Shown here: one piece after another, positions 1 to 24,519 of the stretch
Position numbering within the stretch: the stretch's first letter is position 1
Layout of the letters: each line of letters starts with the position of its first letter
Assembly: GCA_958009085.1 (NCBI GenBank)
Contig: OY253678.1
Coordinates: 992,001-1,016,815, forward strand
Direction of reading: 5' to 3'
DNA: 24,815 nt
Source of the DNA: Protoeuglena noctilucae
Lineage: Eukaryota
The notes under the pieces: generated by a model
What the model saw: only the letters and a program-made list of their open reading frames with translations
What the model was told of the DNA's origin: nothing
The model's database searches: none
Position numbers and translations under genes: made by a program

Positions 1-878
1 GGTGGGCGCGCAGGAGGACATGGCCGTCCCTGACGATCTGCGGGAGCACAACGCGAGTAGGGGTCCACCGTGACCAACACGTTTCGCCACAAAGGCATCA
101 TCGCGGGCGGCGGCCAGGGCCTAAACTGCGGAAGGCGGTTCATCGTCCCGCACCTCGCCGCCACTCCCGGCTGACAGTCGCCTTGGCCCCGCAAAGGCCC
201 GGATAGTTTGACATCTCAGGCAGAGCCCATCGTGCGCCTGGTCTCCGGGTGGTAGGCGGCTCCGTCGGGCTTCGTAAAGCGCACCAACGCCGCGTCTGGC
301 GCCGGAATGCCAGCAGCTTCCCTGCGCCCTTAACCGCGCCTCCCCAGCATCTCCTCCTCTCTCCGCTCCGTCGGCTCAGCAAACCGACCAGAGACACGCC
401 GAACTTCGGAGCTTCACTGGCCCTTCTCCCCTCGCGTGCCTCGCATGGACCGCGCATGGGGGTGATGGCTGCCGATTATTCACCGCGGTGATCCAAGGTG
501 GATCGTCGGCTGGGCCGCCCGCCGTTTGAGGCCAGCGGACCCGCCTGAGGGCAGCGGGGAGGAGCGCCGAAGCGTCTTAGCTCGCAGCCGTTGAGGAAGT
601 CGTGGGAGGAGATCGCATCCCATAAGGCGAGTCTTTACAGCTTTGGCATCCCTCCCATCCCTCGAAGTCGCCCTGGGAGGATTGGGGAGGATGGAGGGGG
701 GAGAGGGGGGGTGGTTGCTGCCGGAAAGCGTCATCTGAGACCAGCATTGGATTCTGTGAATACATCCGCGCATGGGGCGATCTCGAGTCCGCTTACGTCG
801 TCTCCGCAGGGCCATCTCGTGCGCCAGTCCCTCGCCGAGACTGCCCCTCGCCGTTCCGCGCGATTGCAAAGCGGCGCC

Positions 879-3800: not shown

Positions 3801-6800
3801 CTCCCTCACCCTCGCCCCCACCCCCACCCTCACTGCCACCTCACCCCCTCACTCTCACTCCCCTTCACGCAGGAAGCCGTGCATGTCGGAGCCCTGCGTC
3901 TCCTCCGTTCCGTGTGGCAGGGCCCAGCAGCAGAGCTCGAGGCATTGCTAGCGGCGGTGTTGGCGCTTAGACCGGGCCCGCACATCCAGCTGGACGCGTT
4001 GCAGTGGCTGCTTGCGACGCTCAGGGATGAGGGGGCTGCGGATGCTAAGCAGGGGAATGCGGGGGGGAGGGAGGGTGGGGCGAGAGAGGGTGGAGTGGGT
4101 GGGGAGGGGAGAGACGGAGGCGGGCATGCTAACAATGCCGGGGGAAGGGACAGGAGTGCAGAGCGATCAGGGAATGCTGGGGATGCGAGTGGTGCAGCAC
4201 AAGCAGAGGGCAACGGAGAGAGGGACAGTGCAGGGAGGGACGCCACAGCAGTTGACGCGCCGAGCTCTGACGCAACCACCCTCGCCACACAAGCTCATCC
4301 CTCCCACAACCACCCCCCACCCCGCTCCCCCCTGTGCGACGTCCTTTTGCGTCAGCTACTCGACTGTTTGTCCTCTCCCTATGCCCACGTCTCCTCAGCA
4401 GCGCTGGCGGGGCTGGGGAAGGTGGTGGCTGCACGGCCGCTCACGCCGCTGCAGCTGCCGGAGGTGGCGGCGTGTCTTGCCACGCTGCTCACGCACCCGA
4501 GCGGCCGCGTGAGGGCGAAAGCGGCGGATATTCTCGTATCTGTCAGTCCGTACGCTGCGGCGTGCGCGGCGCATCCCAGGTGAGATGGGCGACGCGATGT
4601 GCGTAGTGCTAGTAGTGAGATTGTGGTATCTCACACGCACAGCTGGTGTGAATGTGAGTGCGAGTGTGGCTGTGACTGTGCTGCACACATACTAGGTGAG
4701 ACACTGCCTTGCATGCACATGCGGGGCGAAACGCTCCCCTATAACAACAGCACCTTTGTGACTGTTCACAGTCACAAACGAGACGACAACCCATCCTCCC
4801 ACTCACCCCATCCCCCCCATCCCCCCCATCCCCCCCCGCAGTCTTTCCGAGCCCCTCTCCCGCCAGGCCCTCACCAGCCCCACCGCAGCATCGGACACCA
4901 ACAGCGCAACCCCAGACACCGACGCACGCACTGACACCGACGCCACCCCCGCCCCCGCCGGCCCCGCGTCGCGCGTCGCCCCCGCCACCGCAGCGCAGGC
5001 GCGCGCGCTGCTGTCCGCGCTGGGCGGGCCGGACCTGGTTGGCTCGCGTGGGCGGAGTGCGAGGGAGGGGCGGGCGAGCGGGGGGAGCGATAGGGACACC
5101 AATCATCGGGATAGGGAGCATCGGGATAGGGATAGGGATCGGCCACCGCCCCCGCCGCGGCTCCTGCAGCGGGAGGGGGGTGCCACGCCTGCGCCTGCTG
5201 CAACAGAGGGCGGCGATGGGGCCGGCGCGGGGGCGGGGGCGGCGGGGGCGGTGGGTGGTGCGACTGCGTCTGTGTCGACGGATGCGAATCGCGCGTATGT
5301 GTTGGCGTTGGTGCACGACGTGCTGGTGGCTGCGGAGATGGAGGCGGCGGGGATCGATAAGCCGGGGGCTGCCAAGCGAGCCAAGGCGAGGGGATGCGGG
5401 GGAATGGGGAGCGGCTGCGATAAATGTTAAGCTGCGATCGATGGATAGTATAGTACTATGGACGCTTGCTATCGTTATGACCCATCGACCACACTGCCCG
5501 TCTGTGTGCATGGTTTTGACCAACCCCCTCCGCACATGCATTCCACATGCATATATCAACACCCTTCCCTTCCCCCACCACCCCCCCAGGACTGCCGCCG
5601 CGCTTTGCCACCAGCCGAGGAGGCCGCGTCCCGGGCATGCCAAGCCGTGGCACGCTCTCTTGTACTGTCGCGACTCAAGACACCGATGGGAGCGGCAGCG
5701 GCCACCTTTGCGGCATTGGATGGGCTAGCAAGAGCATTGCTGAGGGAACTGCAAGCATCGGGGGGGCAGTATGGGGTGCTTGGGACAGCGGCGCTCGGGG
5801 CGAGGGTGCAGGGGGATGCGGGTGCGGGTGCGGGTGCGGGTGCGGGTGGGAGGAGAGGGGGCGTGGCGCCGGCTGCGCAGAGGGCGCGCGTGTTGCTGGA
5901 TCTGGTGTTTTGGGTGGAGAGGTCGGTGGTGGAGGCGCAGAGGTGAGGGGTTGTGTATGGGTGTGAGGGGCAGTGTCATTGTTACTGGGTCTATCATAGG
6001 CATCATTGACACGCTCGCACGCCTGTTGCGCTCCCTGATGCACTCTCCATGCAAGCCCACATACACCCATACTCTCTCCCCACACACATACACCCCACGC
6101 ACCCCACCCCACCCCATCCATCCCCTACCCCCATCCACCTGCCCCCACACCCCCCCCCATTACCCCCCCCCCCCCCCTCCCCCCTCCCAGAACGACTTTC
6201 GAGGACGGCTCTCCCGTCCCCGACGCCACCCTGGCATTCTTCACATCGAACGAACGCCCATGCGCCGACCTACTGCGACGCATGCGCCCCACCCTACTAC
6301 ACGTCGCGTCCCTCGCCGGCCACCCCCACGCCGCCCTGCATCACGGCGTCGCGCATTTGGACACTCTGCGCGCCAGGCTCGCTGCTGCCACCGCCGCGCT
6401 AGCCCCGGACGCCACCCCCACCCACCCGCACCCGCCGCCCCTCCCCGCCCTCGCCTTGGCCCGTCGCGCACCCCCCCGCCCCTCCGCCCGCGCCGACCCC
6501 TCTCCCCCGCTCCCCGCCTCCCCCTCCGCGTCACCCTCCACCTCCCCCTCGCCACCGCACGCCCCCCCTGACCCAAGGGATGCATTGCGAGCCGCACTGT
6601 CCGATCTCGCACGGACCACCCAAGTTGTCGCTGCGGCTGCTCTGGCTGCCAATGACCCAGACACCGTGCACGGGACGCACGCGTGGGCATCCAAGCTCGC
6701 CGCACCCGCCGCCGCCAGGCTGTGGCCGGCAGGGCAGGGAACAGGCGCAACCGCAAGCGCAAACACACACGCACACGCATCCGCTTCGCTGCCGGTGCAA

Positions 6801-9800
6801 GCGGCGCTGAGCGCATCATCGGACCCGCGCCCGCTCGCCGCGGCTCATTTGGGCTTCCCGCCCGCACCGGGTGGGCTGTCACAGGGTGGCGTGGCTGCGT
6901 CGGACTTTGCGGGGCTTAGTCAGGCGGGCGACGGGGCAAACCCGCTCGCCCCCCTCCCCACCCCCCCCTCCTCCGCTGACGCCTTCGCATCCCTCGCTCC
7001 CCTCTCCTCCGATTGTTTGGCCTTTCTCCCTGCTTATGCGGACGCGGCTGCTGGTGACTTGCCGCGTGCGCATGTGGGGCTGTTGGCGTGCCTGCATGAC
7101 GGGCGGTGCTTGGAGCTGCTGGGGCGGTCCGGGTGCCGCGACTTGGCGCATTTCGGGTGCTGGGTTGCGGCGAGGGGGGAGGATGCGGGGAGATTGGGGG
7201 ATTGGGTGCGGGCGTGTAGGGGTGCGGCGGGGATGGCGGGGGGTGCGGCATGGGGGGAGGGGCTGGCGATGGGGGCTGTGGAAGCGGCGGTGTATCAGGC
7301 GGAGGCGCATATGGCTGCGGGGGAAGTGGATAAGGTGAGAATTAGGGAGAATGGGGGTGTGGTGTGGGGGAGGTGGACAGGGTGAGGGGGAGGGAGAGGA
7401 GGGGGGGATGTGATGGTCACGTGTGAGATGCATGCACGCTCCCTTGGCTGCTCTCTGTGTGTGCACGCATCCTCTCGCTGCCACTCTCTGCCTCTTATCG
7501 CCACTGTCACCCCTACCACCCCTCACCCCTTACCCACCACCCTTCACCCCCCAACACCCCCCTCACCCCATCATACCTCTCCCCCCCCCCCCCCCCCTTT
7601 ACACAGGCCCGCGACTACCTCCGCGTCCTGCCCCCCCCCTCTTTGGAGCCAGGCGCAACGTCCGCCGACGCCGCCCACCAATCGGCCCTCGCTTATCTGC
7701 GAGGGGCTGTGCGGCTGGGGGAGTGGGGGGAGCTGGAGAGAATGGAGAGAGATGAGAGGGATGAGAGGGAGGTGGGGGATCACAACGGAGGGGTGGGTGT
7801 GGCGCCTGGGGGATTGCGTGCGAGTGCGGCGGCGTTTGTGCCGGCGTCTGAAGGGCGGAGGGTCAAGGAGGTGAGGGGGGTTGTGGTTGTGGTAGTGGGG
7901 GTGGTGGTGGGGGGTAGTGAGGGTGGTAGCGAGGAGATGGTGGGGGTGGGGGTGGTGGGGGAGAAAGGGACCGAGGGTCAAGGAGGCGAGGGGATGGGGT
8001 TGTGAGGGGGGTGAGGGTGGGGGTTTGTCAGTGGTGGCAGTGGGGGTGGCAGTGAGGATGACAGTGAGGGTGGCAGTGGGGGAGAGAGTGAGGGTGGTAG
8101 TGGGGGTGCGGTCACAGCATGATGCTAATTACAAAAAGCATCTCACAGTCACACTGCACCATCCAAATCCCACCACCTCTCCCTCCCTCCTCCCCCCCAG
8201 GCCCTGTCCCGCTCTTTGCACGAGCTGGATGGCGCATCGCGGGTGGTGATGGAGCAGATCGCAGCCGCGTCCAGCCGGGTGCAGGCGAGAAAGGGGGTGG
8301 AGGGGAGAGTGTAAAGGATGGACGGGCTGTGATCGCGGGGATGAATGCAATTGAATGACACTCATTCAATTGCCCCACTCCCCCATGTACCGCTCACATT
8401 CACTCCACCACTCAATTCATACCCATCTCCTCCCCAGGTCCTCCGCGAGCTTTCCCTTCTCGGCGCCCTCACCACCCTACGCACACGCGTCGCCGCCATC
8501 GCATCCCCCACCCCCCACGCCACCGATGCCCCACACACCGCCGTCCTCCCCATCTCCCACCTCCACCCCAACCACTCACTGTTACACCCGTCTCCACCAC
8601 CCCCGCCCCTCGCCGCCCTCCTCGCAAACCCCGCCACCGCCGCCGCACTCAAATGCACCCCCACCCCGCTCGTCGCACCTGGTTTGGTCCCGAGAGCGAG
8701 GGTGTGTTTGCGAGCGGCGGAATCGGCCAATCGCGGCGCGCTGTTCGCTCTGCTTTGGGACGCGCTTGCGTTGCGTGGCAAGGGTGCTAAGTCGGGGCGG
8801 CTGCTGGCGGCGGGGGAGGGGGGGGGCGATGAGGGAGGCGCATGCGCCACTGCTGTCGCTGGTGAGTGGATGGGAGGGGAATGTGAGAGTGAGTGTGCGT
8901 GTGGGTGCGGGTGTGGGTGTGGGTGTGTTTGACGATGTGTGTGCATGCCGTCACCCTTCCCCTCCTTTCCTCACTCACTCACTCACTCACTCTCACTCAC
9001 TCACTCACTCACCCACCCCCCCTCTCCCCACCCACAGTCCGAGCTCCTCGCTGCTTTGGATGTGAATGACGCCACAGGCAACGACAGGGGGGCGGAGAGA
9101 GTGATGGTGCCACGCGTCACAGCAAAGGGGGGGATTGAGTGGGTGCAGGAGGGTGGTAGTGAAAGGGGGGGGTGATGGGGGGGGTGAGATGAGGGGTGGA
9201 TGGGGGGGTGCGTTGGGGAGTGGTGAGGGGAGGAGTGCTTGGGGTGGTGAAAAAGGGAGTGAAAGGGGGAGTGAGAGGGCGCATGATGTGAGGAGTGGGG
9301 GATGGGTGCATCAAGAGCAGGCGTCAGTGTCAGGGCAGAGCGTGGTGGGATCCAGCGGCAGCGTCAGCGTTTCATACAAACCCGGTCCTGACTCGGGCCC
9401 CCTCCTGCTGTCAGCGTCTGCCTGGCGGAGGCTGGGCGATTGGCTGATGGCGCGTGCGGGATTGGTGGACCGGATCACTGGCAAGGAGATCGACATGGGT
9501 GGCGGGAGGGGCGGGGCGGCGGAGGGGGTGGGGCGCGGGTTTGGCGAGGAGTGGCGCAGGCATGTGGAGGAGATGGGGGTGCTGCCGGAGATACCGGGGG
9601 AGGTGAGGGGGGTTAGTATTGTGGGGTATCGGTGTTGTATTGTGGGGTAGTTGGTGTGTGGGGTGTGTGCATGTGGGGTGGCATGGGGGGTGACAGGGTG
9701 TGTGATGAAAAGTTGCATGGGGGGTGGGGTGAGGGGTAGGGGTGTGTATGCATTCGTGCTAATAGCAGGGGCGGGCAAGGGATGGGCCGGGGTCACCACT

Positions 9801-11468
9801 CAGCCCTATTCCCCTCTCTACACCCCACCCCTGCCACTGNNNNNNNNNNNNNNNNNNNNNNNNNNNNNNNNNNNNNNNNNNNNNNNNNNNNNNNNNNNNN
9901 NNNNNNNNNNNNNNNNNNNNNNNNNNNNNNNNNNNNNNNNNNNNNNNNNNNNNNNNNNNNNNNNNNNNNNNNNNNNNNNNNNNNNNNNNNNNNNNNNNNN
10001 NNNNNNNNNNNNNNNNNNNNNNNNNNNNNNNNNNNNNNNGGGAGGTGGGGCGCCCGCGTCTGGCGTTGCTGCGCGAGGCGGAGGCGGCAGCTGCGGCGGC
10101 GCAGGTGGCAGCGGTGCAAGCGGCCGAAGCGAGGCGCGAGGCGGCGGCGGCGGCGGGGGCGCTCCCGCGGCTGGCGAGGGCGGCGGACGCGGCGCGGCGG
10201 GCGCGCAACGACGCCGCGGCGGCGTTCGTCTCACGCGCCGCCCCCTGCGCGGCTCTGCTGGCCGCGGCCACCCCCGCCCTCTCCCGGGCGTGTTCGCTCG
10301 TCGCATCTGTCGACACGCAGGCCCTCGCCACCGTGCAGGCGAGTTGCTGTGTTACTACCAGTGCCATGATCACATTCTGTCGACATGCATCATAGACATG
10401 TATCTCTCATCTCTCATCTCTCCTGACAGGACCATGACGGCGCTTGCGGTTGACATGACAATGCATCTCGTACATTCGACACCTGCTACATACCTGTTAA
10501 TTACATGTACATTTTATCTTCTGACCCATGCCTCCTTGCGCACCCGTCTCCACCCCAGGGCATTCTGAGTGAGGCGGCCCACGCCACGCGAACCTCCAAG
10601 CCCAGCCAAGTCCTGGCGCCTGCGCTGGAGCGGGCGTCCGCGCTGGCCAATCAGTGCTTGGACGGACTCGACACGGCGCGGGCGGGGCTTGCGGGGCTGC
10701 AGGAGGCACTGGCGGGGGCGGCGGGGTGGGCGTCGGTGGGGGGTGCCGAGGCGGTGCTGGGGCCGGAGTGGGCGGCGGTGTGGCGGCGGATGGCTGACCT
10801 GGCCGCGGAGTGGGCGGCGGTCGGGGGCGGTGCGGCGGCGTGGGCACAAATGGAAGCGGCGGTGGGGGCAGCGGCCGACCGACTGCGCGAGTGGGTGGGG
10901 CGGGCGCAGCGCAGGCACGGGATGGAGGGCGAGGGGGATCGGGAGGGAGAGGAGGAGACCGCGAGTGGCCCCAGCAGCCGCGGGTCGACGGAGGCAGCGA
11001 CGGTGGCGGTGGGGGCGGGGCGGGGTGGGGGCGGCGTGGGTGGGCTGGGTGGCACAGAGCCGAGGGTGCGTGCGTTGACGCGGCCGGGAGCGGATGTGGA
11101 CCCGGAAGAGGAGCGGGCGGCGTTCGTCCAGGACGTGCAGGCGAGTTGGACTGGCCTGAGTGGTGTGGCTGTGTGCTTTGTTGGGTGGCTTGCTGCAGTG
11201 CGGTGGGTGGAGTGGTGGTTGCGTGGGCTTGCTGGTGCACGCGCGAGCGAGCTTGCTGCAACATGCGCGAGTGCGTGTGTGGGCATCGGTGATATCGGTG
11301 GTCATTCGTACCCCCTCGCAGGCCCGGCTGCGCAACAAGTTGCGCGGCCGGGTGGGGCACAGTGGCCGCGACCTGACGGTCCCCGAGTTGGTATCGCGGC
11401 TGGTGCGGCAGGCCACGTCCCTCGAGGCCCTGAGCCAGATGTACGAGGGGTGGATGCCGTGGCTGTGA
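879..11468 (+). CDS. SMG1: SMG1-like PI3K-related kinase (nonsense-mediated decay), multi-exon, interrupted by assembly gap; kinase domain not visible
   Basis: Inferred exons: 879-980, 1084-1775, 1941-2077, 2322-2668, 2972-3655, 3873-4579, 4842-5385, 5590-5942, 6191-7334, 7607-7870, 8201-8284, 8438-8861, 9038-9602, [gap], 10040-10338, 10559-11140, 11322-11468. Phases are consistent except at two G runs (8818-8826, 9165-9172). SMG1-type motifs recognised: AVARSLVLSRLKTPMGAAAATFAALDG, RVLLDLVFWVERSVVEAQ, LAFFTSNERPCADLLRRMRPTLLHVASLAGHPHAALHHG and FAT-like SAWRRLGDW. The protein ends in a FATC domain LTVPELVSRLVRQATSLEALSQMYEGWMPWL*. N-terminal exons are supported mainly by phase and splice signals. 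Confidence 0.88.
2126..2205. repeat. Degenerate intronic minisatellite of (C/T)ATGCCAAG-like units
   Basis: Repeated atgccaagt/atgcctaag/atgccaac units in SMG1 intron 3; gccaagtgcctatgcc occurs twice. Confidence 0.6.
2814..2998 (+). repeat. Degenerate tandem duplication of an intron 3' end plus exon start
   Basis: 2814-2891 (...tccag acctggccgtggagcccctcctaccc) matches 2923-2998 (...tccag gacctggccgtcgagcccctcctcccc). Confidence 0.8.
8970..9012. repeat. (CACT)n microsatellite in SMG1 intron
   Basis: About 10 near-perfect CACT units upstream of the acceptor at 9037. Confidence 0.85.
9840..10039. other. Assembly gap (200 N, probably a fixed-size placeholder)
   Basis: Exactly 200 Ns. Confidence 0.99.
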
Positions 11469-11820
11469 CGCATGCTGCGCGTATGCTGAGCTAGGTCGTG
11501 CCAGCACACCTCCTGCCGCATATGATGACATGAGGCGCCGGGGCGCCGTTGCGAAGGCTTCCGCGTTTGCAGCGCGCTGCTCCTGCGCTTGCGATTGCCA
11601 TTGGGCGTGCTGGTTGTCCCACTAGGCCATGATGTATCAATGTCGTAGTTACGTTCGCTATTGAATGTTCCCAGGACTCTGGGCGGTGCCTAGGGAGGGC
11701 CGGGGCTGCGCGGCGCTGGGGGGCCGTGCACTCCGGTCCCGTCTAAGCCAACGCGGGCGCAAGGGGACGCGGCATGTCTGATGCCCCCCCTTGCATGGCG
11801 CGCGTCACGGACGCGGCCGC

Positions 11821-13266
11821 TCACGCCCACCAGGGCTCCAGGCCCGTGCGGAAGTCCGTCTGCGGAAAGAACGCGTTCTCTTGTCATGCCGGCACCCACC
11901 ACAGCATTGTCTGACGACGGCAGAGGGCGACGCTCGTCTGATGTCACCCCTGTCGACACCCCAGCCGTCGCCGTGGGGAGGGATCCGAGCCGGCGGGGCT
12001 GCCGTGTAGCTGGCCGTCTCACCTCAGTCCAGGGCGAGAGGAACACCGAGTCGTCCGTGACGGAGACGTGGGAGAGGGCGAGGGAGAGGGGGGCGGGGCC
12101 GCGCACGACCTTGCCCTCGTTGTTGTAGCGCGAGCCGTGGCACGGGCACTGGAACTGGTTGGCCGACGCCACCCACGGGACGACGCAGCCGAGGTGCGTG
12201 CACACGGCGTTGAGGCCATACTCCTCCAGGTTCCCCTCGTTGGTCACGATGAGGTACGCGGGGTCCCCCTTGAGGCCCTGCACCAGCGACCGGTCCCCCT
12301 TCTGGTGCGTCTTGAGCCACGCCGACTTCTTCACATCGTTACCCAGAGCGTCCTTCGCGGGGAGCGCACCGCCACCGCCGCCGGAGCTGCGGACAGGCGG
12401 GGGAGGGAGGTGGTCGGCCAGTGCCGGCCGCGATCGCCCTCTGCGGGGCCGGCCGGGATGCGCGTCTCGGTGAAACGACCGCATCATCGCCGAAGGCGCC
12501 CGCTTGGCGCCCATCGCCCCACGAGGCGGGCGCGGACGACAGGCTAGGACTCGCGCGCCCGCGACCAGGCCCGCCGAGGCCCGCCGGCCCCTCCCGCCAT
12601 CGCCGTCGCGCGGAAGCGTCACCAAAGTAGGCGGTGAGAGCCACTTCCCCGACCCCGCAAGCCCACCGCGGCAGACTCGCCTGGGGGGGACAAAGAACAC
12701 CGCGTACGGGAGCGCCAGGCCGCCGATGGGCAGGCTGGCAGCGCCGAGGAGCAGCAGGTTGACGATGTTCCTCTTGTTCATGTCCGGCACCTGCGGGGAG
12801 GCCGGGCGGTGGGTTGTCCCGAGCCAGCGCAAGCCATTCGGCGCAGCGAGCGACGCGCCGACCCTCCGAAGATGCGCAGGGCAACGTAAAATCAGCGGGA
12901 GCGCGGACACCGGAGCCCCCGGCCGGTCGGGGCGCCGGCGATCGTTGGAGGTCGGAGGGGGGCCAGTGAGGGCGCCAATTTCCCCGGCTGCCCCGACCGT
13001 GCGCAAAGAACGCAGTGGGAGGTCCCAACGCGTCCGCGCGCCCCGGGGACGCGGGCTCGGCGGAGCGGGGACCGGTTGGGGCCGGAAACATCCAAATCTG
13101 CGCCGGGCCCGCAGCGGGGGGACGGGCGCCGCGTGACGCGCCGTGGATGGTCGACGCGAGCGAAGGCACGCACCTCCCCGGAGACCGCCGCGGCCGCGCG
13201 CACATTCCGGCGCTGGGCGGGCAGGCGGGGGGACGCCACCGAAGGCAGGCGGAGCTGGGCCGCCAT
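11821..13266 (-). CDS. petC: Cytochrome b6f Rieske iron-sulfur subunit, chloroplast precursor (~201 aa)
   Basis: Exons 13266-13174, 12790-12681, 12386-12023, 11859-11821. Transit peptide [10 protein letters not shown]..., [16 protein letters not shown], Gly hinge, Rieske boxes CTHLGC and CPCHGS, C-terminus [12 protein letters not shown]. Intron 2 is GC-AG. Confidence 0.97.
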
Positions 13267-13485
13267 GTTAGACACCCTCACTTCGCTAGGAGAAATCCAA
13301 ACTCACCGGCCAGCGGGCCTGGCAGCCTAGCCGAGGGGCGCTTTGGAGCGAACTTCTGGCGCCAGAAACCTCGACGTCAGCCAGCGCAGGATGCGCGCCT
13401 GCCCCCCGCCGAGCGCCGATACCTATCGCTCTCGCGCCCACTGGCGACCCGGCAAGTCCCCCCGCGCTCTCCCGCGGACGCCCGC

Positions 13486-13675
13486 TCTTGACAACAGCTC
13501 TTGACGCGTCTTGACGCGGCGCAACCTGACCGCAGCGCGGACGACCTTCGCGGCTCCTGTCCAGGGTTCTGGGACGCGTGCGGGGGGGTAAGTGCCCTCC
13601 GCGGGGGTCGCCGGGGGGCGACCTGGCGCTGCCGAGACCCCTGACGTGACTGTCGCTTCCCATTTCGACGTCCTG
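13486..13675. promoter_or_regulatory. Cluster of TGAC/ACGT-core motifs in the divergent petC-bZIP intergenic region
   Basis: TCTTGAC at 13486, 13499 and 13509; TGACGTGAC at ~13642; CGACGTC at ~13667; function not shown. Confidence 0.3.
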
Positions 13676-14043
13676 GGTATCCCTAGGCATTGTGGTTCCG
13701 CTCTGCCCGTGGCCGAGGCGCCGTTGGTGCGCGCGGATCCCCGGTTGCGCCAGCGCTGCCTCCTCACACCACCCATGCTCCCGGGCAGCCCCTCGCCGCG
13801 GTCCTTCGGGCGCCGAGGCAGGCAGGTCGCTACATAGGGAGTTGGGGGTTTGCGTAAGGGGGCGCATCGCTGTCGCCGCTGGCGCTTCGAGAGGGCGGAT
13901 GGGTCGCGCGCGTGCGAATGCGTCCGATTCTCGCGCTTGCCGGCCCGCTGCGGCAGCGCAGACACGGCGATCGATCCTTTGTCCTCTTGGTTGCCGCTGC
14001 GGACCATCCCCAGCCGGATCGGGGCCCCCGGCGCCCGCAGGCC

Positions 14044-15580
14044 ATGTCGGACCCGGCGGCGTCGCTGCCAGAGGCCCTCCCGCCGTCGGCGGCCCCGGCC
14101 CCGGCGCCCGCCTCCGCCCCGATGAGCACCCCCGCGGCCGCCTCCACCTCGGCGCCCATCCTCCCCGCGGGGTCCCTGCTGCCCCTCCCGATGCTCCCGG
14201 GCATGCTGCCCACGTCGAGCCCGGGACAGCAGCTCCTGAGCACCCCCCTGCAGGCGAGCCACTGCATGCGACGCTGCAAACACAGTTCGCGTATCTGACC
14301 ACTTGCACTCACACCAGTCACTCCCCACCCTGTTCCCCTTGCAGTTCCCCGCTGGTCTGCCGACCATCGGCGCCATGCCGGCCATGAGCCCCATGAACAT
14401 GGGCATGGCCTTCCCCGGCATGCCGCAAGAGTGGCCCATGTCGATGGCTGGGTTCCCCGCCCTCTCGCAATCGATGGGCAAGCGCCATTTGGATGAGGAA
14501 GACGAGGACGACGATGATCGCCCAAGGGGGTGAGTGGGAGATTGCGTGGTAAGCAACAGTGTGCGAAGGGACGTATGTGTGTTTCTCTGTGTGCAGCTGT
14601 GACGTGGCGACAGGCGGCTGAGCCGAGGTGGTTGTTCCTTACAACCTGACCCCCTCCCCCCCTTACCCCCTCACCCCCTCACCCCCCCCGTGCCAGGAGT
14701 GGTGCCAAGACGGTGGCGGAGATGACGCCCGAGGAGTTGGCCAAGCGCCGGGCGCAGAACCGCCGGTGGGCCCAGGCCAGCCGTGCTCGCAAGAAGCAGC
14801 GACTGGGGGAGCTGGAGCACCGAGTCAAGGAGCTCGAGTCGAGCCTCGCGGTCATGTCGCGGTCGATGGCGGAGTTGCACGGGGAGAACCAGAAGCTCAA
14901 GACGGTGCTGTCGATCGTGTCGACGCAGCTGCAGAGGTGCGTAAGGGCGGGGGAGGGGTGGGGGAGGGGTGGGGGAGGATGGTGCCCTGATGTGCTTGGA
15001 GAAGAGCTTAAAGCTGTGACGTTACCCTGTCACCACGCTGATGGCACCCTGACACCACCCCATGGCATGGCATGCTTGCAGCCAATCGGGGAACGGGAAC
15101 GGGGCCCCAAAGGTGGACGTGGCACAGCTGATGCAGAGGGTGGGGCTCAACCCGCACTCCCTGGCGCAGACGCCGCTGTCGGTGCCCCAGGCGCTGCCCG
15201 TGTCGCAGGCGGCGGGGGTGCCGGGGACGGGGGGAGACGCCAGGCGAGCACCGCAGCGACCGTGGACCGCCACGCCCGCGCTGCACCCGCCGGCGCGGCG
15301 ACGGTCAACGCCGGCCAGCTCACGCCCACAGCCTCGCTCTGTCTGCAGTGGGGCGGTGGGGGCGGGCCTGTCCATGGGTCCGCTGTCGATGGGTGGCATC
15401 CCTGGCATGTTCGGGATGCCCATGCCCGTGCCTATGTCAGTGCCATTCGACTCGGGGCTGCTGGGTGGGCTGCCAGCGAGCAGCCACGGGGGTGTCCCGG
15501 GCATGGGGGTCCCGGCCATGGCGGGGGGGCTGCGGATGGGGGACGGGCCGGGGGGGGAGGACAAGGACGAAAAGGACTGA
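14044..15580 (+). CDS. bZIP transcription factor with Pro/Met-rich flanks (~342 aa)
   Basis: Exons 14044-14253, 14345-14529, 14697-14936, 15082-15243, 15349-15580. The last intron (105 nt, GC-AG, in frame) is tentative. Basic region KRRAQNRRWAQASRARKK (N-x7-R) is followed by heptad L/V/L/M/N/L. Possible 5'UTR intron 13588-14040. Confidence 0.9.
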
Positions 15581-15735
15581 GAGAGAAATACACTTGTGGA
15601 GAGGGATAATTGCTAGCGAGCCATGCAGCTGTGTTGAGATTGAGTTTTGTGAAGCGCGTGGCTTGCTGCCCTCGCGCACGTCCGCGCGCGTGTCGCAGCG
15701 CCGTTCCACCTCGCCGTTTCAAACCCCGCTACACG

Positions 15736-16769
15736 CTACTGCGGCGCCTTGGGCGCGGCGGCGCACATCTGCACGGGCCCGACGACCTTGGCGACGTGGG
15801 GGAGCGCCACGATGCGGGTGAAGAATTGGGTGAGGTGGGGCAGGGTCTCACGGAAAGAGGGGTCGAAAACGTTTTTGAAACCCAAGAGGAGGTTGCATGC
15901 CATGACGATGTCCGCCAGGGTCGGGGCGTCCCCCACCAGATAGGTGCGACCGCGTGCGAGGTGGGACTCGACAGCGTCCAAGGCGCGCTGGGGACAGGGG
16001 GGGTGTTACGAGGGGTGGCGAACGGACGTGATGGGGCAGGTGCGCATGTCAAGAAGGGTGATGAACGAACACGATGGGGCAGGTGCAAATGCCGAGAGGG
16101 GTGGCGAACGAGCAGGATGGGGCAGGTGCCGGGCAACTGGTCATGGTAACACTGCCATGAGCAGGACTGCGTGGTTAATGTGTCACCTTGGTGGCAGCCA
16201 CCGCAGCGGCTTCCTTGGCCGGAGAGTAGGGGTAGACGCCAGCCAGGGGCAGGCACCAGGCCAGGATGGCGGGGTCGACCTGGGATCATGAGATAAAGCA
16301 GCTGAGACGCAATGCGGGGTTGAGGGCGGTAGCACCAGCGTGCCTCGGCACCCACCTCGCAGCCGGCAAAGTCGACCCACATGTCGACCTGGGCGCGCTC
16401 GTAGGGCGTGCGGCCCATCAAGTGCGCGGTGGCCGACCCGCCCGCCCGCACGATGTGCCTGGCGATCGCGTTGCTCTCAAAGAAGCACCCGGCGGCGCTC
16501 TCCATCGCGGGCACTTTGCCCAGGGGGAACTTGCGCAAGAAGTCCTCGGAGCGGTTATCCACGCCCATGCGGAAGTCAGGACACTCGATCTTGATCCCCG
16601 CGTACTCGGCCGCTATCAGGGCCTGCGGGAACGAGGCAGGAGGCGGCGTGTTTCGCGCAGGACATGATTATCCCGCGAGGCAGCCGCGCACGCATCCCGC
16701 CTCGGCTCTTGCCTTGTAGGCATTCTTGTTCGAGGGGTAGGAGTACAGGGTGGTCACGGCGGTCGCCAT
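15736..16769 (-). CDS. EF1B-gamma-class glutathione S-transferase-fold protein, GST domains only (~222 aa)
   Basis: Exons 16769-16713, 16622-16356, 16279-16187, 15987-15736. Motifs LYSYPSNKNAYKALIAAEY, FPLGKVPAME, FESNAIAR, QVDMWVDFA and TYLVGDAPTLADIVMACNL are typical of the eEF1B-gamma N-terminal GST region. The gene stops at TAG right after it. Confidence 0.88.
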
Positions 16770-17179
16770 GGTCGCGACGATTTTCCCTGCGCCACGCAAG
16801 CGAGTGCTGCACATCTGTTCAGGAGCTCCGCAAGGACGACCAGGCCCCGCAGCGATGCCATCATCCTACGCCAGACGCACCAAGCCCGATTGCGTCGAGC
16901 CCCGTCCTCAGATGTCACGACAGCACGCGTTTATCGTTTTGTCGCTGGTGTGCAGCTGGTGAGACGCGATTTCATGCACCGAGGCGCAACCTTGCAGTGC
17001 AACAGCCAGCAAGTGGCAAGCAGGGTCGGGCTCGAGCTCGGAAGGCGCGCATTCTTGGTGGCGACACCACGCCAGTCAGAGTGGCGGCGAGTCTGCTCAC
17101 CCATTGCCACGAACAGCACCTGCGATGCGGAAACTGTCTCACTAAGACCGCTGTCGTGTTGTCCTCGGCGCCATCCCCG

Positions 17180-18894
17180 ATGGCTTGCAGGCGCGCGCTG
17201 GCCGCTGCACGCCCGCTGCTCACCTGCGCATCCGATCTCGCGTCCTTTCATCCCGATCGCTTGGGACGACGGGGTATTTTCGACTGGCTGCGAGCCACCC
17301 CGTCGTCTCCCCACGAGCCCCGCACGGACGGCGCCCAAGCTGCTTCACCGGGCTCCTGGCCGCCGCTGGGTCGCGAGGAATCGCAACGAGAGAGCCTCCC
17401 GTCTCCAAATAAAAATGCCTTTGCCGAACATGCCTCCTCTTACCCCCAGGTGTGGCATCGTGTGTACATCGTCGCCTGCGGGTCGACTCACTTGCCGATG
17501 GGGCCAGCCATGGTGCAGCCGCGTTCCGGCATTGCAGGTAGACGCGGGAGGGGAGTGGACGGACGAGGCCGCACTGGCGCTGGCACGCAGCCAGGCCTGG
17601 GAGCCGACCCGCGAGGCCATCGACGTCTTTGTGGCAGTGCATGCGGCGACGGGGCTGCCGTGGTGGGGAGTCTTTGGGGGCGTCGCACTGCTCGGGCGAC
17701 TGCTGGCCGCACCACTGCAGGCCGTAGTGCGGGAGAGCAACGCCCTGAGGCACCCAGGCAGCCAGGCAAGCGCCGTACCGGTGACACCGACCGTGGCTCA
17801 CATTGCTCTACCACCGTGACTGCCGCCCACGCCTCTCCGCACCCAGCGAGGCTGCTACCTCGCAGCCACACCCCATGCGTCGACTCGTCCACAGCTACAC
17901 CCCCTTTTGCCCATGCAGGGACGCGCTGGATGCGTGGCGAAGGTCCTCCGGAGAGACGGGACCCGCACCCCCTGCTTTCCACACGCTTGATGGCGCCACG
18001 CGGATGCTCCTGCAGCAGAAGGCCACGGCCCTCGCGAGGGAGAGAGGCCTGCGCCCCTTCAGGTGATGGCCACCGCCCTGCTGCACCGTGCATGTGGCAC
18101 TCGCTCACCAACTCCCTCAGAGTCACCGATCTGCTGCCGTGCCTGTGGCGCAGGGCAACTGCGTGCGCCGTGGTCGATACCCTGCTGGCCGCTGCTCCCG
18201 TCGCGGGTTCCCTGGCCCTGGCGTCCACGCGACTTCCCTCCCTCGAGACCGGTGGGTTCGTACCCTACACTAACCTGGCAGCGGCCGACCCTCTGGGCGC
18301 CGCGGTCGGCGGCACTGCCCTCGCCCTCATGGGGCTCCTAGAGGTCGCGATGCGGTGAGCGCCTGGGTACGCTCAGCAAGTGTGCGAAGTCGCCACCGCC
18401 GCCCTGCGTCACCTGCTAACCAACCCCGCCCCTGGCCCCTGGCCTCCCGCAGCTCAGCACGGCGCGACGCGGCGGCGGGTGGCTCCCCGACTCTGGCCGA
18501 CGTGCGGGTGCGGATCGCACTGCGCGTGGCAGCGGCCGGGTCAGCGTGGGCGCTGTGGGGACTGCCTTTGGCTACGCTCGAGGTGGTGGCTGTCAGTGCA
18601 GCCACGCAGGCGATCGTTTCATTGTGGATGGGCTCGCGAGGAACGAGCCCCGCGGGGTCGCAGCAGGGGCCTGGCACGCATCCGATGGGCACGCAGAGCG
18701 GGGGCGTGAAGGTGGGGGACGAGAAGATGGGAAGCAGCGGGGGTGCGCGGCGGGGTGCGATCACGCCTGCTGCAGCGCCACCGCCAGCGGGAGCGGCGGA
18801 CGAGGCGCAGCTGCTTGCGGCCCTGGGCCAGGCGGGGGGCGCGCGGAGCAAGCTGCACCGGGCTGGCAGCAGCGCCAAGCGTAGGCAGTTTTGA
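17180..18894 (+). CDS. Divergent Oxa1/Cox18 (YidC/Alb3/Oxa1 family) membrane insertase, likely mitochondrial
   Basis: Exons 17180-17449, 17538-~17749/17765, ~17919-18062, 18154-18354, 18453-18894. The intron 2 junction is unresolved. Motifs VHAATGLPWWGVFGGVALLGRLLAAPL and PSLETGGFVPYTNLAAADP; Arg-rich N-terminal presequence. Confidence 0.78.
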
Positions 18895-18980
18895 AAGGAT
18901 GGACCGTCGATTAACTATGCCTAGTTGCAAATGTCCCAGTAAAATCCCCATCTGGGCAGGGTTTGGGTTACGGTGTTTTG

Positions 18981-19799
18981 CTAGTGGTTGAGCTGGCTGA
19001 GGATGGCGCGCTTGAGGGCCAGTCCCTGCTCCCGCAGCTCCTGCTTGCTCTTCCTGGCCGCGAGGTGTATCTTCTGCTCCAGCAGGTTCGCCTGGGCCCT
19101 GGCGAACTCCTCCACGGTCATGCGGGCGGGGTCTCCGGGAATGACGCGGATGGCCAGCTGCGTGCACACGAGCAACCTGTCAGCTGCCGGACACCTGGGC
19201 TGCCCGGGCACGCGCCGACGCCACGACATGCATCCCGTCACCTTGACCACATCCCCCAGGCCCAGGACGTCCCCCGTCTTGAGAGGGTAGGAGCACCCGG
19301 GCTCCACGCGCTCGCCGTTGATCGTGGAGCCGTTCGTGCTTCCCAGGTCCTGCGGCAAGGCGACGGCGGGAACCTTGCGCGTATCTTCAGTTCCAAATCG
19401 CGCGGAGATGGGGGCGCGGCCGCCGGTGGGCGCGGTGGGATTCAAACGGAGCGAGAGCGCACCTGGAAGACCCACGCCTCCCCCGTCCATTCCACCACGC
19501 CGTGCTCTTCGGACACGGACGGCTCCATGATCGCGAAGACGTCTGGGAGGCTCTTCTTCGTGCGTTTCTGGAGAGAGCAGCGCAAACGGGGCCGGAATAA
19601 CAACGGCGCAGCTGGCAGCCCCGCTGCGACTTTCAGCGCGACAGGCCGGCCCCCTCACCAGTCGAAACGACCCCCCGGCCTTTCCGAACTTCCGTCCCTG
19701 CCCGGGACCTGCAACAACCTCGAGCTCGAACACATCCGCCAGGCGCTCCGGGGCGGGGCCCTCCTCCTCGACCGCCTCATCCCTGGGCTTCCGCGTCAT
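18981..19799 (-). CDS. Small FHA-domain protein with C-terminal helical region (~176 aa)
   Basis: Exons 19799-19659, 19567-19463, 19349-19242, 19157-18981, all phase 0. FHA motifs LEVVAGP, R, SVSEEH and DLGSTNGSTINGERV, LKTGDVLGLG. Confidence 0.88.
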   Translation of the reverse strand: MTRKPRDEAVEEEGPAPERLADVFELEVVAGPGQGRKFGKAGGSFRLVRGPACRAESRSGAASCAVVIPAPFALLSPETHEEEPPRRLRDHGAVRVRRARRGGMDGGGVGLPGALSLRLNPTAPTGGRAPISARFGTEDTRKVPAVALPQDLGSTNGSTINGERVEPGCSYPLKTGDVLGLGDVVKVTGCMSWRRRVPGQPRCPAADRLLVCTQLAIRVIPGDPARMTVEEFARAQANLLEQKIHLAARKSKQELREQGLALKRAILSQLNH

Positions 19800-20116
19800 C
19801 CCCGGCAGGTACAGGTCGAATTATCTAGCCAGGGCGCTTCGGTCAGTGGCCGCCAGGTGGCGCAGGCAAGGAAGTTAGCTTGGACTTTGCAGGATGAGGG
19901 ATGAGACGCAGGGCGAGATGGCAAAACCCTCATTGCCTGAGTAGTTGCGTGAACGATGGCAACAGGATCTGGTTCAACAGCAAAGGATTCCGCTGGTCCA
20001 TGCCAGAAATGGCCACGTCAGTGATCACAGAAGCGTTCTTTTCTCCCAAACCGATCGACGAGCACGACAGACACTGCATGATAGCCAAGTCAATCGCACA
20101 CCGAGCACCCACACCC

Positions 20117-21397
20117 ATGGCGACGCTCCTCGGGAAGACGCGGGTGAGAAGGCGCAGGCGAAGCGTTCCGGGATCCCCAGCGCAACTCCAGCTGCAATTT
20201 GCGCGTCGTTCGAGCCGCGTCGTCGTCGATCCGCGTCCCGGGGTCGCGGGTCAGCTGGCCTTGCCTCGGGGGGAGCAGCGGAGGCCGTCGCGCGCCCCGT
20301 CGCTCGTTTCGGTGGCAGCTTTCTTCCGTTCGAACTCGGGACTGCTCAGCAATGCGCCCATGGATCTCGATCGGGGGCCGCGGGGCGCCTAACAGCCCGG
20401 GGTTGGGAGTTGGGCTTTTACGCACGCTGGGGCCACCCGCTGCCAGCGATGTCGGCTCACCTGCCGAGCTCGTTCTCCGATCTTTGCAGATTGCGGGTCC
20501 GGCGGGCCCAGCAGGACTCCGCGCGCGCCCTGTGCCCGTCGCTGGTAAGCCGCGCTCCTTGCCAGCCGAGAGCCCCCGGCACAGCGCGTCTCGCGTCGCC
20601 GACTCGACGCGCTCGCATGTCTGATGCGGTAGGGGCAATCGAGAGGACCGCGGGCGACCCCGTCGCCTGCCGCTCGCCCCCGCAGGTCCCCGCCATGTGT
20701 GTCCCGCTCCCGTCACGCGCTGCCGCGTCTTGGCCCGGAGCCAGCAGGCCGACAAGAAGTCGACGTCGGCCCAGATTGTGATCCAGGCCAAGGGCACGAC
20801 CGTGACGCCGGCGATGCGCGACCACGCGATGGAGAAGGTGGCATCGTGCGTCCACAACTTTGAGGTGCGGTGCACTGTGCACTGCCCCGCTGCGACCCCT
20901 GCATTCAAGCAGTCGCGAGGCCAACCCTGCAAGTTGGCATCCCACCGCCTCCGCGCAGGTGGATGTCAAGGAGGTGGACGTGCACATGTTTGTGCGCAGC
21001 AAGGAGCAGGGGCACCACGGCCGCGACGAGCACACGGTGGAGCTGGTGGCCTACACGCTGCGGAACGGCACCCTGCGCGTCCAGGACACGCAGGCGAGGG
21101 GCGCCACAGCTGTGGCCTGTGACCGTATGTGCCTGTGACTGTATGTGACCGTACCCACCCAGGAAGTTTGGAATCACCCCCACCCGCCCGCTGGCCCAGT
21201 ATCTGATCCCACCCTTCGCGCCTCGTTCGCAGGACAACATGTACGCGGCGGTGGACTCGTCGTGCCACAAGCTCAAGGGGGTGCTGAGCAAGACGAAGGA
21301 GAAGGCGATGCAGCGGGGCACGTGGCCGGGGCACGCGGAGATCAAGGGGGGAGCCAAGCTGGCCGAGGTGATGGCAGCACAGGAGGAGGATGACTGA
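20117..21397 (+). CDS. PSRP1: Plastid ribosome hibernation factor PSRP1/pY (HPF/RaiA, S30AE domain) precursor, lacking C-terminal domain (~186 aa)
   Basis: Exons 20117-20143, 20490-20544, 20686-20864, 20959-21093, 21233-21397. Transit-peptide-like N-terminus, then IVIQAKGTTVTPAMRDHAMEKV, VKEVDVHM, TLRNGTLRVQD, NMYAAVD...KLKGVLSKTKEK. Confidence 0.85.
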
Positions 21398-21481
21398 AAG
21401 CGGACACGGGTCACAGAGGGCAGCGGGTGCGTCTGGGGTAAAGAACAGCAGGCCGCGTGCGCGATCGATTGAAAGGGAACG

Positions 21482-23350
21482 TCAGCCGAGGTGGAGCGTG
21501 CGGCGGGTGGCGTCGGGCAGCGGCTGAGATGCCCCGCCGCTCGGTGGCCGGCTGGTCCAGCGGCTGGACAGGGGCGTGCTGCCGACCGTCCACATCCCCG
21601 ACCCGGGGGGCGCCAGGCCCAGGGCCGCATTGCGCTGCTCGAGCTTCCCCGCCACGAAAGCCACGAACTCCTCCATCGACACGCGGCCGTCCCCGTCGGC
21701 GTCCGCCGCCGCAAACATCAGGCTAGCCAGGTGCGCGGGCACGTCGGGCGCCACCTGCGTGACCAGTGCACGCATGCTGTTATCGCAAGAGACTGCTTTG
21801 CGTCTGCTGCCTCGCAGCAAACGGCGGGCCATATGCGCTGCTTATGACGATGCGTTCCATATTCGCTTGCCTGACGGAACGCGGCTGTGGCCTCCCGCAC
21901 ATCCAACGCGCCGTCCCCGTCCTCGTCGTAACAGGCGAAGATGCGCCGGGCGCGGACCATGGGATCCGCCGCCGCCACCCTCTGCTGCACGTGCTCCCAG
22001 AACTCTGGCCAAAACACCCTGCGTGTGACAGACACGCCAGCAGGGTATGTCCTGCTTCCCACACTCTAATACTCCGGCTTCTTTCACTGCGGGTTCCGAC
22101 ACATGCTGCCAACTCGCAAGCAGTCGCAGATGAGGGCGAGCAAGGCCTCGGCAGCCGGGGTGCGCCCTTGCCTTTCCCTGGGGCACTTCTTGAGCAGCGC
22201 CCCCATCTCAACCGCGGACGGCTTGCGGCCCAGCACGGCCGTCAGCGCACACTTGGTCTCGTGCGAGCCCATCCACCCCTTGCTGCCCTCGTCGTACAGC
22301 GTGAACGCCTCCCTGCAACCACGGCCACAGACCCTGTGCTCTCGGCACAAACCGGGTGCACTATGCACAGCCCGCCGCATGCACAGACTGGCCCGCATGG
22401 CGTTGGCCTCCACTTAAAAGTGCCACTCACCTGGCGTTGGCCTCCACCCATGAGTGCGACTCGCTGCGCCCCGCGTCCCGCGCTGTCCCCAGCTGTGCCG
22501 GCGGCCGCCCCAGGCCCTGCCTCTCCGCAGACGCCAGGTGGGGCAGGGGACTCAGAATGCGATCCGCGTGCGACAACCCTTGTTGGCCCCACTTGGTGCG
22601 GACGCTCAGGGCGGGGCTCTCACGGGCGCGCGTGGATGGCGCATTCTCATTCGCGTCGCCGGCCCTGTCCTCCGCACCCTCCATCATCTCCCTGCTCGCA
22701 GGACGGGGCTCGACGGTTGGGGGCGATAGCCGGGTCTGCAGTGCCAGGGGCAGTGTCAGGGGCAGGGTGGGTTAGGGACATGCTCCACCTCCGCGCACCT
22801 CAGACGGCGGCGGCTGGCCACGCGAGCCGAGAAGAGTCGGCTGAGCTCGGCCTCTCTGCGGCGTGCGGAAGGGGCACGTCAACTTGAGACCAGCTCCTGA
22901 TGACGGTGTAAACCCTGGGCAGGGCACAGAGCTCGGGCCTCACGTGTGGGTGCCTGGGGAGAGGCCGACGCCTGGCGATGGGGACGACGGGGATGCGGGG
23001 GACGGGCGGAGGCGTGCGACAGCTCGTGGAGTCAAATCCTCCGCGGATCCAGTCGCTACGGCATCGCGCAGGAGCCCCGCGGCCAGGCGGACGGCGCTGG
23101 GGCCGGCCCCAGGCGCGTCCACCGCGACGCGGGAGGGACGCCCGGAAGAGCGCGCGGACGACAGGGCTGCGGAGCTCATTTGCGGCCCGTAGATAGACGC
23201 GGCGGGGCTCGCCCGACGCGAATGGAGGAGCGACGGCGCCCGCGGGGGCGTGCGTGCCCATGCATCGTCGCCTCGGGGCGCCGGAGCCGGCGGAGGAACG
23301 CCCGATGCCCTCCTCGGGGTATCGTTTATCGATGGCAGGCGCTCACTCAT
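21482..23350 (-). CDS. EF-hand calcium-binding protein, EFCAB11-like, with long low-complexity N-terminal extension (~428 aa)
   Basis: Exons 23350-22944, 22855-22799, 22691-22431, 22312-22172, 22018-21871, 21754-21482, all phase consistent. Motifs EAFTLYDEGSKGWM, LGRKPSAVE, IFACYDEDGDGAL, AFRQVAP, FAAADADGDGRVSMEEF. The first three exons are less certain. Confidence 0.8.
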
Positions 23351-24003
23351 GTCCCCGGCCAGGACACGGGTCGCGGGGGCCGCCCTGCTGGGCTAACAAC
23401 GATTAAGGCGGGAAATCAGTGGTTCGCCTGCATCCGCTTGCCTCGGGGCTCTGCAACAGGGTCAGCTGCACTTTGGCTTAAGTGTAGGCACGTGTTTACA
23501 TCCGCACAGCTTTATCGCGTGGGGCCGAGCCCTGACGTCAGGCGGCCCGTCAGTCATCGATGGCATCCTCTGAGCCGCGATGTGGATGTGGAGACAGTGC
23601 ATGTCTGTGCACCCTCCCCGGTGACTCCTAAAGACCACACGCACGCAGGTACCCACCACCACGCGTGCCATGCTAGCCCAGGCACCTGGCGGCCCCGCAG
23701 CTGCGCAGTGCAGGCCCCGGCCATCACAACACAGCAGTGCCTTGCAGTGGATTCAACGTCGCATCTGAAGCAGTAGATTGGTAGAGAGGTCAGCAACTCT
23801 GCACTCTTCACACAACACCAATACACAACAGAGCATCCCCTCGCTGTGCACGAGATGTCGGCCGGCACATCGCTGCTGCGGGGACGGATGCGGGGACACC
23901 TCAGGGCACGCGCCTGCGCTACTGAACGCCACAGCGGAGGCGAGGATGGCGTGACGCACAGCGTCGCATCTCGGGCTCACCTCGAGGCGCCAAGGGTCCC
24001 CGC

Positions 24004-24519
24004 TCAACAACGAAACGCAGACCCCTTCTTGCACCGAGACAGCGTGCACTCGCTGTGCGTGAGGGTGCTGTTGCCGACGCGGCAAAGGCCGTACTGCTTG
24101 CAGTCGGCAATCTCCACGCCCACCACCTCCGCATGCCCTCCCTTCTTGAAATACACACCGTGCAACTCCTTGGACCCCGCGATGTGCCCCCCTTGCACCG
24201 TCACCCTGCTACCCACGCCATCGCAGAAAACGTCACTGGGGTTGCAGTCGGCGATCTCCACGCCCACTAAGTCTACGTGACCGCCCCTTCGGCAGTGCAC
24301 CCCGTCACCCTTCTGGGACCCTGTGATGTGGCCCCTCTGAACCATCACCCTGCTAACCTCGCCATCGCACAAGACACCGCTCTGCTTGCTGTCGGCGATG
24401 ACCGTGCCCTCCATCTCTGCCTCACCACCCTCCCCACAACACAACCCGTGACCCTTGTTTGACCCCGTGATGCGCCCCCCACGGACCACCACCCTGCTGC
24501 CCTGGCTAGCACATGTCAG
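24004..24519 (-). pseudogene. 5'-truncated right-handed parallel beta-helix (pectin-lyase-like) repeat ORF abutting the telomere
   Basis: About 3.5 copies of a 144-bp/48-aa unit (GVxCxGxxSRVxVxxGxIxGS...GVxCxxGGxxxxxGxxIAD). The open frame has no upstream in-frame ATG and runs into telomeric repeats, with TAA at 24531-24529. Confidence 0.75.

Follow-up and report, generated by a model that had tools for sequence, protein, structure and literature searches.

Frequent GC-AG introns in a GC-rich subtelomeric window of the Protoeuglena noctilucae genome

The locus and its genes

Introns with a GC instead of a GT at the donor site make up about 1% of the introns of animals and plants, and the rest of their donor site follows the consensus more closely. 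Here we analyse a stretch of 24,815 nucleotides from the alga Protoeuglena noctilucae (contig OY253678.1 of assembly GCA_958009085.1, positions 992,001 to 1,016,815; hereafter the window, with all coordinates counted from its first letter), in which introns that begin with GC and end with AG (GC-AG introns) amount to about 30-40% of the introns. The guanine-plus-cytosine (G+C) content of the window is about 68% and uniform along its length, and an assembly gap of 200 N lies at 9840-10039. Because TTAGGG repeats run from about 24500 to its end, the window is subtelomeric. The sequencing runs (DNA and RNA) that contain this stretch are mostly labelled as marine metagenome or metatranscriptome.

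Eight genes were modelled in the window, namely a long FATC gene (gene 1), petC, a bZIP gene, a GST gene, a gene labelled "Oxa1", an FHA gene, a PSRP1-like gene and an EF-hand gene, with 3-5 introns in the small genes and no fewer than 14 in gene 1. By comparison with Pfam, gene 1 is FATC/SMG1-like: HEAT repeats accompany a FATC domain (E=2e-13), and the exon at 6192-7334 matches the SMG1 family faintly, below the threshold. The petC product carries the TM_PetC and Rieske domains behind a short leader resembling a transit peptide. GST_N and GST_C were matched in the exons flanking intron 1 of the GST gene, EF-hand matches occur in both exons flanking the intron at 21755-21870, and a weak S30AE match lies in the exon that follows intron 21094-21232 of the PSRP1-like gene. 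The label "Oxa1" comes from an earlier, sequence-only reading of the same stretch and turned out to be unsupported: in exons 2, 4 and 5 of this gene (17180-18894, plus strand), the three that were scanned, no Pfam family was matched at E<=0.01.

A search with the PetC protein returned 7537 proteins at E<=0.001 among 8000 candidates, of which 120 were listed. Apart from a public protein identical to our translation (P0001, see below), the closest of these 120 relatives shares 77% identity, and in a tree of 30 sequences the window protein falls among the green algae but outside every named clade.

GC-AG introns and the evidence for their splicing

Twelve of the 39 modelled introns are GC-AG introns (31%, 95% confidence interval 17-48%), the remaining 27 having GT donors; this table leaves out donor 9603, whose intron runs into the N gap. 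The sequence-only reading had put the frequency at about 12 of 41 and called it very high, and this is upheld both by the models and by the RNA joints described below (6 of 15). The letters G-C do stand, on the proper strand, at all twelve donors it had named, and its count of seven genes out of eight with at least one GC donor, spread over 17 kb, holds as well, with the FHA gene as the exception. The twelve introns are the following (a slash marks the exon-intron boundary of the donor):

5386..5589, plus strand: gene 1 intron 7, donor AAG/GCGAGG; model only, with an open frame on both sides and a C-rich acceptor tract
8285..8437, plus strand: gene 1 intron 11, donor CAG/GCGAGA; model only, frame continuous
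10339..10558, plus strand: gene 1 intron, donor CAG/GCGAGT; model only, the unspliced reading frame hitting a stop
11141..11321, plus strand: last gene 1 intron before the FATC exon, donor CAG/GCGAGT; RNA joint in 4/4 runs
12387..12680, minus strand: petC intron 2, donor CAG/GCGAGT; RNA joint in 4/4 runs and identity with P0001
14254..14344, plus strand: bZIP intron 1, donor CAG/GCGAGC; model only
15244..15348, plus strand: bZIP candidate intron 4, donor CAG/GCGAGC; unconfirmed, proposed from its motif and odd composition
16623..16712, minus strand: GST intron 1, donor AAG/GCAAGA; RNA joint in 4/4 runs
17758..17918, plus strand: "Oxa1" candidate intron 2, donor CAG/GCAGCC; unconfirmed, the acceptor strong and the donor required to keep exon 2 in frame with exon 3
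21094..21232, plus strand: PSRP1-like intron 3, donor CAG/GCGAGG; RNA joint in 4/4 runs
21755..21870, minus strand: EF-hand intron, donor CAG/GCAAGC; RNA joint in 4/4 runs
22019..22171, minus strand: EF-hand intron, donor AAG/GCAAGG; RNA joint in 4/4 runs

Six of these introns are really spliced in vivo. The RNA evidence consists of Logan contigs of four metatranscriptome runs, which represent one study and no more than three samples, aligned to positions 5000-23500 of the window and mostly at least 99% identical to it (26 of 31 in run X9). Splice joints numbered 34, of which 15 were listed and are meant by every count of RNA joints in this text. Each listed joint was tried at all allowed alignment shifts, requiring GY..AG (Y being C or T) on the strand of the gene, and every one of the 15 has a unique placement of this kind, six as GC-AG and nine as GT-AG. 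A GT-AG placement is impossible for all six GC-AG joints, and all six were found in each of the four runs; among the nine GT-AG joints, those at 22692-22798 and 22856-22943 were present in two of the four runs only. P0001, a public protein of 201 amino acids from an ENA assembly, is identical to the spliced petC translation across the GC junction. Five of these junctions had already been regarded as fixed by conserved protein sequence, all of them now seen as GC-AG joints in RNA together with a sixth at 22171, and the nearby GT donors or intron retention that would have spoken for a different splicing pattern were not found at the six sites.

The joints at 5386, 8285, 10339, 14254, 15244 and 17758 are not among the 15 listed, which is uninformative about them either way. 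Within about 60 nucleotides, the 28 GY-AG pairs considered around 5386 include no frame-compatible GT-AG pair, and around 14254 just three GY-AG pairs are compatible with the frame, each using donor 14254 and none a GT. Of the 8 consensus positions scored, 7 are matched by the GC site at 8285 and 4 by the best GT alternatives, and at 10339 the corresponding figures are 8 and 3. On these grounds, the four donors 5386, 8285, 10339 and 14254 appear well supported in silico. Protein searches aimed at transcript-derived reading frames confirmed none of the six donors: that with gene 1 exon 15 (three proteins) found the unspliced open reading frame of the window and two relatives; that with the bZIP exon (two proteins among 142 candidates) found the unspliced frame of the window and a relative, P0122; and that with "Oxa1" exon 2 (one protein among 6703 candidates) found nothing but the unspliced frame of the window.

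The last two candidates are of a different kind. Splicing at 15244 is optional for the reading frame, since the proposed intron is 105 nucleotides long, in frame and free of stops. Its GC site matches 7-8 of 8 scored positions, compared with 3-4 for the GT alternatives, and the 35 residues that it would encode are rich in arginine and proline, unlike their flanks and unlike P0122. As for "Oxa1", where the sequence-only reading had placed an uncertain donor between about 17750 and 17766, the frame requires 17758, a site that is itself unconfirmed. The motif at 17758 is weak (4 of 7 positions, leaving out +1 and +2). The alternative donor 17766 (CAG/GCAAGC) was rejected, being out of frame with the sole strong acceptor at 17918.

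Beyond the twelve, a further candidate GC-AG intron was noticed at 627-809 (plus strand), ahead of the point where the gene 1 model begins, with donor AAG/GCGAGT and a pyrimidine-rich acceptor ...CCGCAG/, outside the range aligned to RNA. It suggests that gene 1 may start upstream of 879 or that its 5' untranslated region contains an intron.

Frequency and donor context

The frequency of GC-AG introns in the window is far from what a low background rate would produce: if the rate were 3%, 12 among 39 would have a probability of 1e-9, and 6 among 15 one of 3e-6. The 22% known from Micromonas pusilla, in contrast, is compatible with 12 of 39 (p=0.13). The motif AGGCRAG (R being A or G) occurs 20 times in the window, compared with 8.8 expected, and none of 100 shuffles reached 20; modelled donors account for 11 of the 20 occurrences.

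The GC donors are uniform in their surroundings. The letters AG occupy positions -2 and -1 in 12/12 and positions +4 and +5 in 11/12, with the complete R-A-G at +3 to +5 in 11/12, whereas the GT donors are more variable at these flanking positions, as the sequence-only reading had observed (position by position, 26 GT donors were compared, without GT donor 18355). The mean match to the donor consensus is 6.1 of 7 for GC and 5.2 of 7 for GT donors. Sorted by context, the 39 introns comprise 11 GC and 7 GT donors in the form AG/GYRAG and 1 GC and 20 GT donors in other forms (Fisher p=2.5e-4), a test that is partly circular because the unconfirmed GC donors were recognised by their motif. With the 15 RNA-shown joints alone, the split is 6 GC to 2 GT in AG/GYRAG contexts and 0 to 7 elsewhere (p=0.007). 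Among the 18 donors with the strong context, the share of C at +2 (11/18 = 0.61) equals the ratio C/(C+T) in the interior of the introns (0.614).

In other respects the two groups of introns show no notable difference, be it in length (159 nucleotides for GC and 171 for GT introns) or in G+C (0.63 and 0.64). The pattern of a U12-type donor is RYATCC, and none of the 12 GC introns has a 5' end resembling it. A common sequence family of GC introns was also rejected, as they share no sequence beyond low-complexity repeats: blastn among the 12 GC introns gave no non-self hits at E<=0.01, and the repeats of the window are of low complexity only, consisting of C-rich 3' and G-rich 5' tracts that are found in GT introns too.

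Related genes

Two proteins related to gene 1 bear on its intron at 11141. In P0125, a relative's unspliced reading frame that is 48% identical to gene 1, similarity is lost exactly at the orthologous position and Val-Ser follows. Since all valine codons begin with GT, the intron of P0125 should start with GT, a statement drawn from the protein sequence. The other relative, P0126, reads straight across the same position at the protein level. For petC, a search in DNA matched a pattern in 533 stretches. Relatives are encoded by 289 of these, and among the 80 of the 289 that were retained, identity reaches 70% at best and all matches are contiguous (intronless or derived from a transcript); a close genomic relative is absent from these 80.

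Other features of the window

Several observations concern the introns and exons of gene 1. Exon 10 has its end, together with the donor, repeated within intron 10: GT stands in the copy at 7861-7880 and GC in that at 7976-7995 (both on the plus strand). This intron is full of G-rich repeats of 12 nucleotides, and use of the copy at 7976 would shift the frame. Similarly, the acceptor and start of exon 5 are duplicated in intron 4 (2843-2891 and 2950-2998, plus strand, 78% identity, repeat family D19), where the extra copy may serve as an alternative 3' splice site or be what is left of a duplicated exon. Several gene 1 introns within 3656-9037, among them 5943-6190, 7335-7606 and 7871-8200, are rich in G and T towards the 5' end and very rich in C towards the 3' end. 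They contain periodic repeats of 8-17 nucleotides, and their G-rich and C-rich tracts form inverted-repeat pairs; these tracts might pair with each other within the pre-mRNA. The reading frame of gene 1 is broken twice near runs of G, at the end of exon 12 and inside 9038-9602, which affects the region 8862-9602, and homopolymer errors are a possible cause. No kinase domain was found in the six gene 1 exons scanned, a scan that left out the exons at 7607-10338; the N gap may contain the exons for the kinase.

The RNA contigs offered further details. At position 17687, contigs of three runs carry a G in place of the A of the window, which is most simply explained if the environmental population and the assembly represent different strains. 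A contig present in 4/4 runs links 14120 to 6136 with 11 extra letters in between. As both ends are C/G-rich and of low complexity, this link probably reflects another locus or a misalignment and not trans-splicing. Transcripts of the PSRP1-like gene start near 20114-20116 and have no intron before 20544. Their first ATG opens a frame of about 90 codons (20117-20390, plus strand) that ends before the S30AE-like frame and lies in another phase, and which may be an upstream open reading frame. Directly before the TTAGGG telomere repeats, an open reading frame of 162 amino acids (24004-24492, minus strand) contains an internal repeat of about 45 residues.

Discussion

We consider it probable, at roughly 70%, that the GC-AG introns of the window are ordinary U2-type introns with a C at +2, produced by GC-biased substitution at a position where a change is tolerated in strong donors. 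According to this explanation, GC-biased substitution, through mutation bias, GC-biased gene conversion or both, would replace the T at donor position +2 by C. This C would be tolerated by selection only in donors whose other letters (the exonic AG and RAG at +3 to +5) pair fully with U1, the full pairing elsewhere compensating for the single mismatch at +2. In strong donors, position +2 would then be nearly neutral and drift to the background ratio of C to T, and in weaker donors the T would be kept.

The context of the donors speaks for such an account. Since GC is found almost only in donors with consensus letters at their other positions, the C at +2 looks like a tolerated mismatch and not like a preferred base. 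Since GC appears in consensus donors at the background ratio of C to T, near-neutrality of +2 in well-pairing donors is suggested. The sequence-only reading had offered GC mutational pressure on strong donors as one of its explanations, and both the split by context and the agreement of 0.61 with 0.614 fit that proposal. So does the literature, in which abundant GC-AG introns go together with high G+C in Aureococcus, M. pusilla and Chlorella sp. (PMC3033335), in E. huxleyi (PMC4028052) and in pelagophytes (bioRxiv 2024.10.30.620910). Two further points are in its favour, namely the T/C difference at +2 between the paralogous donor copies of intron 10 (7861 and 7976) and the GT expected in P0125 at the donor orthologous to GC donor 11141. 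With this explanation at hand, an altered recognition by U1 is not needed to explain the GC donors.

A number of points nevertheless weigh against our interpretation. The sample is 24.8 kb at a telomere, and subtelomeric regions may exceed the rest of the genome in GC donors. Half of the GC donors (6/12) rest on models, the full-table context test has the circularity mentioned above, its RNA-only counterpart has a sample of 15, and the match of 0.61 is based on 18 donors. Moreover, high G+C is insufficient by itself: Micromonas RCC299 is reported to have 64% G+C and yet 2.7% GC-AG introns (PMC3033335), and for Prasinoderma coloniale, a green alga of about 70% GC, the mutation-accumulation results given in PMC11884799 describe a spectrum without GC bias.

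Among the alternatives, the one that survives best is a local, subtelomeric effect, for example through GC-biased gene conversion that gains in strength towards the ends of chromosomes, with a genome-wide GC-AG rate of a few percent. The window does end in TTAGGG repeats and samples eight genes. We regard this as unlikely, however, given that GC donors occur in seven of the eight genes across 17 kb, housekeeping petC included, that G+C is even along the window, and that, provided the window is representative, 12 of 39 excludes a rate of 8% (p=3e-5).

A second alternative is that recognition of +2 itself is altered, through a variant U1 small nuclear RNA (snRNA) or a changed U1C, LUC7, U6 or Prp8, making GC a preferred or equal donor. 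The very high share of GC (6 of the 15 RNA joints) would agree with this, and base modifications or proteins of the U1 small nuclear ribonucleoprotein are left open for Aureococcus and M. pusilla in PMC3033335. The confinement of GC to otherwise-consensus donors, with GT accepted in weak ones, argues that C at +2 is costly, and the same source gives canonical U1 5' ends for these two GC-AG-rich algae. An Rfam scan of the window matched no family, hence no snRNA that would bear on the matter. Altogether we find altered recognition improbable. A more specific form, a major spliceosome of dual specificity in which a variant reader of the 5' splice site (a second U1, or a change in U1C or Prp8) takes C like T, seems to us very improbable; if true, the alga would be a natural system of this kind and would use GC-AG introns more than any other green plant.

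Finally, a recently spread, introner- or transposon-derived intron family with a GC donor can be practically dismissed: GC-AG borders do prevail in the introner-derived introns of the dinoflagellates Symbiodinium and Polarella (reviewed in PMC11282704), but no blastn hits connect the 12 GC introns, the C- and G-rich low-complexity tracts they have in common extend to GT introns, and an intron orthologous to that at 11141 exists in a relative as distant as P0125.

The findings have practical as well as conceptual consequences. Gene finders restricted to GT donors would mis-model about one third of the introns here and affect seven of the eight genes of the window; whoever annotates this genome has to permit GC donors. 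In addition, the context pattern amounts to a simple, testable account, based on 39 introns, that bears on what Iwata and Gotoh called an "enigma".

Comparison with known systems

GC-AG introns of animals and plants resemble those of the window in their pattern of compensation, equally without a U12 motif, but their frequency differs, being some 20-40 times higher here. A plant-wide survey gives an average of about 1.2% (PMC6310983). Much higher shares are on record for a few lineages, as the sequence-only reading had correctly stated; what it understated is that those lineages are precisely the GC-rich marine algae, with a green one among them. Iwata and Gotoh (2011, PMC3033335) report 39.6% for Aureococcus anophagefferens, 22.2% for Micromonas pusilla CCMP1545, with a genome of 65.9% G+C, and 7.7% for Chlorella sp.; they link the abundance of GC-AG introns to high G+C, note canonical 5' ends of U1 and describe the origin as an "enigma". 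Pelagophytes were found to have 14-17% (bioRxiv 2024.10.30.620910). In the haptophyte Emiliania huxleyi, about 60% of donors are GC, validated by reverse-transcription PCR (Feldmesser et al. 2014, PMC4028052), and the same authors describe Joint Genome Institute gene models as mis-annotated by GT-only gene finders.

Aureococcus, M. pusilla and Chlorella, one of them a marine green picoalga, share high G+C with the window (65.9-69.5% compared with 68%) and have kept AG acceptors; Aureococcus and M. pusilla are also alike in having GC-AG introns in the tens of percent, a rate that in our case comes from 39 introns and not from a genome. Micromonas is much less intron-rich than the alga described here. 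E. huxleyi is again GC-rich, with RNA-validated GC donors and canonical AG acceptors, and differs in its lineage and in that GC is the majority donor, whereas GT is the majority here (27 of 39). The introner-derived GC-AG introns of dinoflagellates are similar in their high share, with a shared sequence family that is not seen in the window. Other green algae offer contrasts of a different sort: Chloropicon is described as having a TTTAGG-type telomere compared with TTAGGG here, 57-60% G+C compared with about 68% in the window, and fewer than one intron per gene (PMC12301720), and the intron G+C reported for Prasinoderma coloniale, whose genome papers make no mention of splicing, is 73.5%, compared with 62% here.

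A literature search on GC-AG introns in algae (without supplementary tables) found no report that could be tied to the alga of this window. Taken together, abundant GC-AG introns are already known from other GC-rich algae, and what the window contributes looks like an addition: the short list of algae with GC-AG introns in the tens of percent gains a green lineage that lacks close annotated relatives.

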